Virus record (IMG/VR): IMGVR_UViG_3300041405_000299
Location: 1-64,000 of that record
From: a virus
DNA length: 64,000 bases
Reading direction: 5' to 3' (one strand)
Positions 6,908 to 7,824 of the stretch are shown here, one piece after another (position 1 is the stretch's first letter; each line of letters begins with the position of its first letter). The notes beneath the pieces are model-generated. The model saw only the letters and a list, made by a program, of their open reading frames with translations, had not been told where the DNA came from and searched no databases. The position numbers and the translations under genes were made by a program.

Positions 6908-6927
6908 GGTATAAGTAAAGTGTAAGG
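6908..6927 (+). promoter_or_regulatory. Conserved phage promoter-like motif (GGTATAAGTAAAGTGTAAGG)
   Basis: Motif family member. Its 3' end overlaps the first bases of the tRNA-like element at 6925. Confidence 0.55.
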
Positions 6928-7000
6928 CAGATAGCTCAACGGTTAGAGCGCATCCGGACAAACCCAGATGATGTTGGGGGTTCGAATCCCCCTCTGTTTA
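6925..7000 (+). ncRNA. tRNA-like 5' leader (aberrant anticodon arm, no CCA)
   Basis: Canonical D arm (TAGCTCAACGGTTAGAGC) and T arm (GGGGG-TTCGAAT-CCCCC), with a 7-bp acceptor. The anticodon arm is replaced by an interrupted ~7-bp helix CATCCGG/CCAGATG with a 5-6 nt loop. Confidence 0.55.
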
Positions 7001-7029
7001 GCTTTAAAATCTCCTACGAGGAGAACACT

Positions 7030-7824
7030 ATGCAGAAAGAATCCAGTTTTTTATTCACGGCCCTCGGCGGCCACGTCCTGCAAAACATCGCCGGCGCCAA
7101 GCTCGTTAAATCCCGCGGTTTCCTGGAAGACACCGCTAAAGCTCTGATGTCAGGAGCCCTGGCCCGGAACGCCCGAAAGGGAACCCTGAAAGAAGCGGCT
7201 AAAACGGCAGTGACCAGTGTAGGTGTCCCTGAAGCTATTATGGCACAGCACCGTGCGTTTGAAGCCGGGAGAACGCTGTACGCTCGAGCTCGAGCCATGG
7301 GTATCGACCCGAACAAGCTCACGAAGAAAGAAGCGGCGAAGATGCGAATGGTGGCCGAAGGTCGTCTACCGGATAAGCACTCAACGCCGTTAACCGAACG
7401 GGCGAAGTCTCTTTTAGGTTCCAATACGTTGCCAAAGGGCACGATCAAAGCGGACGCCGTTAAGCAAGTGACCAGCCGGCCAATGGGTAGCCTCTCTCCA
7501 CACTCTCGTGGAGCGATCATTACCGGAAACGCCATTGCGTCCATTGCTGAACCGGGTATCGGTGCCTTAAACGCCGCGAAGTTTGGTACGGAACTGAAGA
7601 GCTTCCAGAATACTCGTCTAGGCAAGTACGTTGAGAAAAACATGGTGCAGAAGCCACTGACCGATGCCTTCCAGTCTGGGGCGGCCGGTAAAGCGATGAA
7701 CAACCTGAAGTCCTTTGGCTACAAGTACGGCGTGAACGGTGCCGTTGGTCAGGCGATCGAAGGGGCTCATAAGCTCGGCTCCAACTCAATGAAGAAGTTG
7801 CCAGGTGGTATAAGTAAGAAGTAA
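7030..7824 (+). CDS. Basic Lys/Ala/Gly-rich protein (264 aa)
   Basis: SD GAGGAG. Low-complexity K/A/G composition. First gene after the tRNA-like leader. Confidence 0.8.
   Translation: MQKESSFLFTALGGHVLQNIAGAKLVKSRGFLEDTAKALMSGALARNARKGTLKEAAKTAVTSVGVPEAIMAQHRAFEAGRTLYARARAMGIDPNKLTKKEAAKMRMVAEGRLPDKHSTPLTERAKSLLGSNTLPKGTIKADAVKQVTSRPMGSLSPHSRGAIITGNAIASIAEPGIGALNAAKFGTELKSFQNTRLGKYVEKNMVQKPLTDAFQSGAAGKAMNNLKSFGYKYGVNGAVGQAIEGAHKLGSNSMKKLPGGISKK

Follow-up and report, generated by a model that had tools for sequence, protein, structure and literature searches.

Clusters of transfer RNA (tRNA) genes in phages are usually read only as a supply of codons or as a replacement for cleaved host tRNAs. 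What, then, is the role of a cluster member that lacks the features of decoding and charging, yet is under purifying selection at the level of a working tRNA and holds a fixed position in what appears to be the leader of a messenger RNA (mRNA)? Such an element of 76 nucleotides (nt) lies at positions 6925-7000 of a 64,000-nt stretch of viral DNA (positions 1 to 64,000 of IMG/VR record IMGVR_UViG_3300041405_000299), hereafter called the window, directly ahead of a protein gene that starts at 7030 (gene 7030). The window belongs to a large phage. ARAGORN makes 25 tRNA calls in it, spread over 4140-19303, and it also encodes ribonucleotide reductase, primase-like and lysozyme-domain proteins. Comparison of the element with its relatives bears the signature of selection on tRNA shape rather than on decoding, and we propose, at about even confidence, that it is a tRNA-derived, non-decoding processing module at the 5' end of the gene 7030 mRNA.

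Anatomy of the element

The region 6908-7030 contains, in order, GGTATAAGTAAAGTGTA, the 76-nt element, GCTTTAAAATCTCCTACGAGGAGAACACT and the ATG. Its parts are listed below (bp, base pairs; MFE, minimum free energy; SD, Shine-Dalgarno sequence).

6908-6917, + strand: promoter-type motif GGTATAAGTA, part of 6908-6924 when the conserved downstream AAGTGTA is included (window statistics, relatives)
6925-7000, + strand: tRNA-like element, 76 nt (ARAGORN, Rfam, MFE fold, covariation)
6925-6931/6993-6999, + strand: acceptor, AGGCAGA/TCTGTTT, 7 bp, two of them G·U
6934-6949, + strand: D arm, GCTC-AACGGTTA-GAGC
6951-6970, + strand: stand-in for the anticodon arm, helix CATC-C-GG / CC-A-GATG with a C·A mismatch, loop ACAAAC
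6971-6975, + strand: variable loop, 5 nt
6976-6992, + strand: T arm, GGGGG-TTCGAAT-CCCCC
7000, + strand: discriminator A7000, followed by GCT, no CCA
7001-7010, + strand: single-stranded A/U-rich linker GCTTTAAAAT (alignments, folds)
7010-7024, + strand: hairpin TCTCCT-ACG-AGGAGA, in which the SD is paired with an anti-SD strand (predicted folds)
7030-7824, + strand: gene 7030, a 264-aa Lys/Ala/Gly-rich protein, ortholog of gp100 of phage Arash

The initial annotation of this locus had described D and T arms and a 7-bp acceptor, an anticodon arm replaced by an interrupted helix with a short loop, and a missing CCA, and had expected ARAGORN to give an undetermined call. This anatomy was largely right; its proposals that the element directs processing, stabilises the mRNA or titrates a tRNA-binding factor are conjectural. 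The MFE fold of the element is a cloverleaf of -26.1 kcal/mol with the arms in the described sequence. With the Rfam tRNA model RF00005 it reaches 50.2 bits (gathering score 29; E-value of 8.6e-8 for the whole window), and the model skips the anticodon-loop region, where 12 nt stand in place of the 9 expected. ARAGORN called 6925-7000 on the + strand as 'tRNA-???' with a 4-base 'anticodon'. The anticodon arm measures 20 nt instead of the usual 17. Its helix has 4 bp and, beyond the C·A mismatch, another 2 bp, closed by the 6-nt loop ACAAAC, which has no U and hence no U33.

At the 3' side, A7000 is followed by GCT, and 29 nt separate the end of the element from the start codon of gene 7030. 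An encoded CCA closes each of the 23 other tRNAs that Rfam supports in the window, including an odd tRNA at 4502; besides the element, the sole ARAGORN call without CCA is 4790-4878, which has no Rfam support. Compared with canonical tRNAs (RF00005), the element thus has the cloverleaf, the 7-bp acceptor, the elbow nucleotides, the D-arm GG, the T-arm TTCRA, the length, the setting in a tRNA cluster and a score above the threshold, but not the 5-bp anticodon stem, the 7-nt loop, U33, an anticodon conserved among orthologs or the encoded CCA, and its weak acceptor stem is rich in A/U and G·U pairs.

Relatives, covariation and selective constraint

GenBank contains a single relative, Salmonella phage Arash (OQ632216), whose genus has been described as an orphan. 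The Arash ortholog of the element (locus L001, 9046-9119) is annotated as tRNA-Asn, ARAGORN returns '???' for it, and its arm pairs only with a 6-nt loop, TATTCA. The label tRNA-Asn is probably wrong, a mis-annotation that the nature of the element explains, and so, probably, is the label ribosomal protein L2 on an ArfA-like open reading frame (ORF) of Arash (9964-10188). Further loci were gathered by look-ups of encoding contigs, from IMG/VR and by one metagenome pattern scan; one match of that scan (L031) proved to be an unrelated tRNA cluster and was discarded. The gene 7030 protein has 22 homolog clusters at 62-100% identity, and 18 distinct versions of the element were recovered, all between the motif and the ATG. 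The layout was the same in the 17 leaders that were aligned or folded: GGTATAAGTA, 6-10 nt, the CCA-less element, TTAG-NNN-TAAAAT and ATG. In this comparison, which the initial annotation had suggested, the layout is kept in all 18 distinct variants, none of which encodes CCA. A dedicated covariance model found one copy per genomic stretch examined, at 67-89 bits, with real tRNAs at 63 bits or less.

Outside this group, megablast against phages returned shared tRNAs only and no close DNA relative, and an exact search of IMG/VR with the anticodon arm gave no match. A pattern of the T arm plus the 3' acceptor strand had no match in 185,579 bacterial and archaeal genomes, and a cellular origin of the element was rejected.

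The helices of the element are maintained by changes on both sides. In a structure-blind MAFFT alignment, 92.7% of cells were paired, against 36-62% when the 3' partners were slid, and 10 of the 21 pairs had changed on both sides; none of 500 shuffles matched the observed percentage of pairing, the counts of both-sided changes or the covariation score. The alignment of the 18 variants fitted to the model, which favours structure by construction, gave 93.9% of cells paired and double changes in 11 of the 21 pairs. In the D stem a C-G pair became U-A in 8 sequences, and in the anticodon stem a U-A pair became C-G or A-U in 6; compensatory changes were also found at acceptor positions 2, 3, 4 and 7, and the T stem shows one G-C to C-G swap.

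Mean pairwise identities set the parts of the element against the adjacent gene and against the tRNAs of the same loci:

Third codon positions of gene 7030 (identical residues): 0.50; 0.57 for the pair with 94% protein identity
Anticodon arm of the element: 0.59
Acceptor, D and T parts of the element: 0.80
tRNA-Phe of the same loci: 0.86
tRNA-Gln of the same loci: 0.75
tRNA-Tyr of the same loci: 0.70

Third positions are identical at about 0.50, and neutral sites are therefore near saturation. Against this background the acceptor, D and T parts are conserved as working tRNAs are, and the anticodon arm is near neutral. The D-loop GG and the T-loop TTCGA are invariant across the variants. In the relatives the anticodon arm is 14-23 nt long and has 4-8 bp; the loops are 4-10 nt, and among 100 loop nucleotides there is not one G. 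Even the close relative L030 has one loop base deleted in comparison with the window. ARAGORN assigned the orthologs inconsistent identities (???, Gly, Trp, Leu or none). Neither a canonical 7-nt loop nor a consistent anticodon occurs in any relative, which supports the element as a tRNA mimic and not as a normal tRNA that the initial annotation had mis-folded. The pattern is the mark of selection for the tRNA shape (acceptor, T arm, elbow and a helical fourth arm) and not for decoding.

Two other readings were discarded. Diversifying selection on the anticodon arm was considered, given that the window and locus L002 differ at about half of the arm positions despite 94% protein identity; third positions of the same pair are at 0.57, so that the arm changes at about the neutral rate. 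AlaRS identity was likewise rejected: G3·U70, the AlaRS identity pair, is found together with A73 in the window, and G3·U70 also in L030, whose acceptor is identical, and, by our register, in L014, but most variants have A3-U70 and the feature is not conserved.

Transcript start, leader and candidate functions

The motif ahead of the element recurs through the window. There are 10 exact copies of GGTATAAGTA against 0.56 expected, and 15 copies with at most one mismatch against 1.39 expected, 14 of which are on the + strand; the lone copy on the - strand lies inside a block of long - strand ORFs. The copies occupy intergenic gaps or their edges, and a semi-conserved a-a/g-GTGTA-a comes after them. 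For nine of them the motif lies 21-32 nt from an ATG, and at 6908 the distance is 112 nt, of which the element makes up 76. Every relative has the motif at the same place and also elsewhere in its locus, always in the orientation of the query gene. The sites form a class that is over-represented, matched to the strand of the gene, intergenic and at a fixed short distance from start codons.

Because it is recurrent, gene-oriented and intergenic, we are fairly confident that GGTATAAGTA is a promoter, and it reads like an extended -10 element (TGGTATAAG); the motif may instead act at the RNA level. A probable promoter consensus is thereby available for a clade of phages that has been little studied. 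The corresponding start would fall around 6922-6925, which would leave 0-3 nt ahead of the element here and 2-6 nt in the relatives. The promoter-like motif of the initial annotation is a real feature, far from chance; of its further claim, a transcript that starts with a tRNA mimic, the mimic stands and the start position is predicted from the motif. Two pairings within the leader were examined and rejected. One joins TAAAG (6916-6920) to CTTTA (7002-7006), the other, in the MFE fold, AGUGU (6919-6923) to ACACU (7025-7029); across variants, such as L010, L011 and L014, neither persists. Both would require a start upstream of the one that the motif implies.

Further sites of the form GGTATAAGTA(a/t)(a/g)GTGTAa are located at 1601, 5457, 7807, 18218, 29160, 29923, 31694, 43988 and 53099 (- strand), in addition to near-matches, and across the genome the motif often overlaps the stop codon of the preceding gene. 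The copy at 1601 has a terminator-like hairpin in a 57-nt leader, and the copy at 29923 has a 67-nt leader.

Downstream of the element the linker is 9-10 nt long in the relatives, and its TAAAAT (7005-7010) is invariant; it is a candidate cleavage zone for RNase E or RNase BN/Z, or a candidate S1-binding enhancer. The hairpin that follows, in which UCUCC(U) pairs with the SD (A)GGAGA, is predicted in 16 of the 17 variants at -5.8 to -10.3 kcal/mol, with differing loops. The other motif-driven leaders of the window have no visible complementary strand upstream of GGAG. Conservation of the anti-SD strand indicates that the RNA includes 7010-7015 and speaks against a start downstream of the element.

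In the processing model, the element would be transcribed as the first ~76 nt of the gene 7030 mRNA from the abutting GGTATAAGTA promoter. RNase P would cut at its 5' end; the other cut, by RNase BN/Z or RNase E, would fall at the 3' end, which lacks CCA, or within the A/U-rich linker UUUAAAAU. Cleavage would set the mature mRNA's 5' end a few nt upstream of the SD hairpin, which could in turn shield the mRNA after processing and adjust how it is translated. Where transcripts of the upstream tRNA-Tyr/Phe/Gln unit read through, the element would split the upstream RNA from the gene 7030 mRNA. Host nucleases of tRNA maturation would be expected to cut since the parts that these enzymes read (acceptor stem, T arm, D/T-loop elbow) are kept and those for decoding and charging are lost; and the missing CCA, encoded by all the other tRNAs, would make the 3' end an endonucleolytic substrate of RNase BN/Z. 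RNase BN of E. coli is needed for the CCA-less tRNAs of T4, and RNase E cuts A/U-rich tRNA trailers.

Several points weigh against this model. The element has an A1-U72 pair and a purine at -1, whereas substrates of bacterial RNase P usually have G+1 and U-1, and the CCA, absent here, is the part that pairs with the bacterial RNase P RNA. The start site and the cleavage are both conjectural. A minihelix would suffice for processing, yet the D arm and the hairpin of the anticodon arm are retained. Cleavage would also leave an mRNA with a 5'-monophosphate, which normally survives more poorly in enterobacteria unless a hairpin protects it, and the model leaves unexplained what advantage this leader would have over the plain short leader of the other motif-driven genes.

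In a rival reading the ~76-nt RNA acts in trans, as a decoy or sponge for a host factor that recognises the tRNA shape (for example a defence nuclease, or a modifying or processing enzyme), and merely shares its promoter with gene 7030. In its favour, the retention of the whole L-shape, including the D arm and the helix of the anticodon arm, goes beyond the needs of a processing signal. Loops without G and without the U33-anticodon layout could be poor targets for anticodon nucleases, and genes for counter-defence and translation rescue lie nearby (an Acb2/Tad1-like protein at 11627-11854 and an ArfA-like protein at 7927-8079). Many tRNA-cleaving defences are known, and phage tRNAs have been proposed as a counter to them (PMC10264068 and others). 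However, the anticodon arm, the usual target of such nucleases, is near neutral and variable in length, which is unexpected for a mimic of a specific target, and a decoy leaves the invariant linker, the SD hairpin and the fixed position before one gene unexplained. We therefore regard a role in trans as possible but unlikely. It is doubtful that such a decoy is made in bulk from a strong promoter and blunts host enzymes that recognise the tRNA shape, and equally doubtful is the related reading in which a retained 5' tRNA 'cap' recruits translation factors in cis. A literature search on phage tRNA-like decoys or leaders found nothing specific; if the decoy reading were true, it would be an RNA-based counter-defence without a described phage precedent.

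The same leader could also be a stand-alone tRNA-like gene or an attenuator, with transcripts from 6908 stopping mostly at the T-arm hairpin and the U-rich 3' acceptor strand, and gene 7030 served only by transcripts that read through or that arise at a weak internal promoter (TTCGAA and, after 18 nt, TAAAAT, with a start near 7017). A terminator scan does flag GGGGGTTCGAATCCCCC followed by TCTGTTTAGC (the T arm plus TCTGTTT), every variant has a U-rich 3' acceptor strand, and the invariant TAAAAT resembles a -10 element. We consider this arrangement improbable: with 5 bp in the stem and 7 nt in the loop the hairpin would make a weak intrinsic terminator, the promoter scan passed over the internal site, whose -35-like hexamer matches at 3 of 6 positions, and a start near 7017 excludes the anti-SD strand (7010-7015) that is conserved in 16 of the 17 variants. 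Loss of the anticodon loop and of CCA, in a tRNA cluster with gene turnover where the odd tRNAs at 4502 and 4790 are missing from relatives, would also fit a decaying, functionless pseudogene kept by its location between promoter and gene. This is very unlikely given that the acceptor, D and T parts retain 0.80 identity despite near-saturated synonymous sites (0.50), that compensatory changes keep the helices, and that the element is present in 18 of 18 variants. We give hardly any credence to a working decoding tRNA with an unusual loop, such as a quadruplet or frameshift suppressor. ARAGORN proposes a reading with an 8-nt loop (the 4-base anticodon being 'CAAA'), and the Arash ortholog is annotated as tRNA-Asn, but there is no U33, the loops of the relatives differ in sequence and range from 4 to 10 nt, the ARAGORN identities disagree, the Arash arm pairs only with its 6-nt loop, and the weak, A/U-rich acceptor comes without the CCA that the other tRNAs encode.

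The processing model has counterparts in other systems. In plant mitochondria, t-elements upstream of cox1, rps4 and ccmFN1 direct cleavage by RNase Z/P that forms mRNA ends, and in Arabidopsis cox1 gets its 5' end when a 74-nt t-element in the leader is cut at its 3' end (PMC1920247). The phage element resembles them in being a non-canonical, non-decoding cloverleaf whose T arm is well conserved and which lies in the leader or trailer of an mRNA; the non-decoding cloverleaf, the conserved T arm and the position in the untranslated region were found in the 18 variants, with the place in the transcript implied by the motif. The phage element differs in its enterobacterial host, the abutting promoter motif and the conserved linker with its SD-sequestering hairpin, there is no sequence relationship, and cleavage is experimentally established for the t-elements whereas the phage element is known from sequence.

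In E. coli, thrU-tyrU-glyT-thrT-tufB is a co-transcript of tRNAs and an mRNA, and CCA-less phage precursors are endonucleolytic substrates of RNase BN/Z. As in such co-transcripts, a tRNA-shaped RNA would lie upstream of a protein gene in one transcript and tRNA-processing nucleases would separate the two; unlike in the co-transcripts and the T4 precursors, where the tRNAs are functional, the phage element keeps the shape only. The vtRNA-pre-miRNA units of MHV68 and the mascRNA of MALAT1 join a tRNA mimic to a functional RNA, are cut by RNase P or RNase Z and are not aminoacylated; these systems differ from the element in being eukaryotic, mascRNA lies at the 3' end, and there is no homology. 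Nor does the element match the tRNA-like domain of tmRNA, since ARAGORN finds no tmRNA, the variants do not conserve G3·U70 and the element has a helix in its anticodon arm, or the Tymo_tRNA-like family RF00233 (16.5 bits against a threshold of 40), the element being in the 5' leader of a DNA phage.

Processing elements of tRNA-like form are thus already known, and the novelty would be that this one is placed in the mRNA leader of a phage. Should the host's RNase P and RNase BN/Z process it, the element would be, to our knowledge, a bacteriophage case of the t-element or punctuation principle, otherwise known from organelles, herpesvirus RNAs and MALAT1 RNA, and it would show a dead tRNA gene co-opted as a cis-regulatory part. 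Promoter, tRNA-like element and hairpin form a compact natural module that can be tested in the cultivable phage Arash.

Gene 7030, the extent of the unit and neighbouring genes

Sequence searches with the gene 7030 protein gave no Pfam, PHROG or PDB match. The protein encoded at 7030-7824 is 94% identical to that of L002 (3001-3792), with 57% identity at synonymous third positions; the difference between the two values indicates very strong purifying selection on this protein, which has no recognisable domain. Its Arash ortholog gp100 was found by mass spectrometry with 471 spectra and is labelled a structural protein. We did not adopt this label: the 'structural' list comprises 116 of 252 proteins and holds many enzymes, including ribonucleotide reductase and ligases, and therefore shows expression and not location in the virion.

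Three features follow the gene or overlap its end:

7807-7816, + strand: second GGTATAAGTA motif, at the end of the unit
7838-7903, + strand: 21-codon hydrophobic ORF
7892-7916, + strand: strong terminator-like hairpin CGGGGTCGTTAAGGCCCCG plus T6 (Arash equivalent at L001:10014-10029)

The initial annotation had placed the element at the head of an operon of Lys/Ala/Gly-rich proteins; these features speak against that. The other, larger Lys/Ala/Gly-rich genes (8734, 10509 and 11183) have a sigma-70-like site of their own ahead of them, at 8193-8221, and Arash has this site too. Since a second motif and a terminator-like hairpin follow gene 7030 and the other genes have their own sigma-70-like site, the tRNA-like leader most likely serves gene 7030 alone.

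A homolog of ArfA (alternative ribosome-rescue factor A) with 50 aa (Pfam PF03889, 71 bits) is encoded at 7927-8079 and was found in 11 of the 12 relatives looked up (none was called in L022). Its SD and ATG come directly after the 7892-7916 hairpin, which overlaps the stop codon of the 21-codon ORF. The arrangement at 7838-8079 looks like leader-peptide attenuation that would tie ArfA expression to translation status. Just after the Lys/Ala/Gly-rich genes comes one (11627-11854) whose 75-aa product carries the hairpin domain of Acb2/Tad1 (Pfam PF24729, 54.8 bits) and is likely a sponge that takes up cyclic-nucleotide signals of immunity.

A near-consensus sigma-70-type promoter, TTGACA-17-CATACT with TG, was found at 6253-6291, 9 nt ahead of tRNA-Tyr, and is kept in Arash (L001 8104-8141). 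The phage thus seems to use two promoter classes, one host-like and one of the GGTATAAGTA class, and the sigma-70-like site abutting tRNA-Tyr would provide a precedent in the same genome for a design of promoter followed by tRNA.

Other tRNAs of the cluster are also unusual. The tRNA at 4502-4575 has a 6-nt anticodon loop (TAGTGC), a GC-rich acceptor, an encoded CCA and an Rfam score of only 34.4 bits, and has no ARAGORN call in Arash (L001) or in the close relative L004. The 89-nt ARAGORN call at 4790-4878, 'tRNA-Thr(cgt)', has a 7-bp acceptor, a long variable arm, a non-canonical T loop (TGGAAAT) and a T run after it, and may be another tRNA-like element or a false call. A tRNA with a CUA anticodon (amber suppressor; ARAGORN label 'Pyl') is located at 16575-16649, with 56.3 bits in Rfam and a CCA, and a relative has one too (L033, 11803-11878); wholesale recoding of TAG is not evident, since long ORFs are intact with TAG as a stop. 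Between the tRNA groups, a 175-aa ORF with a TTG start (5724-6251) matches phage DNA primase families over their middle part only (PHROG 849, profile positions 146-337 of 435). This primase-like gene is short or split, and its Arash counterpart is annotated as primase/helicase.

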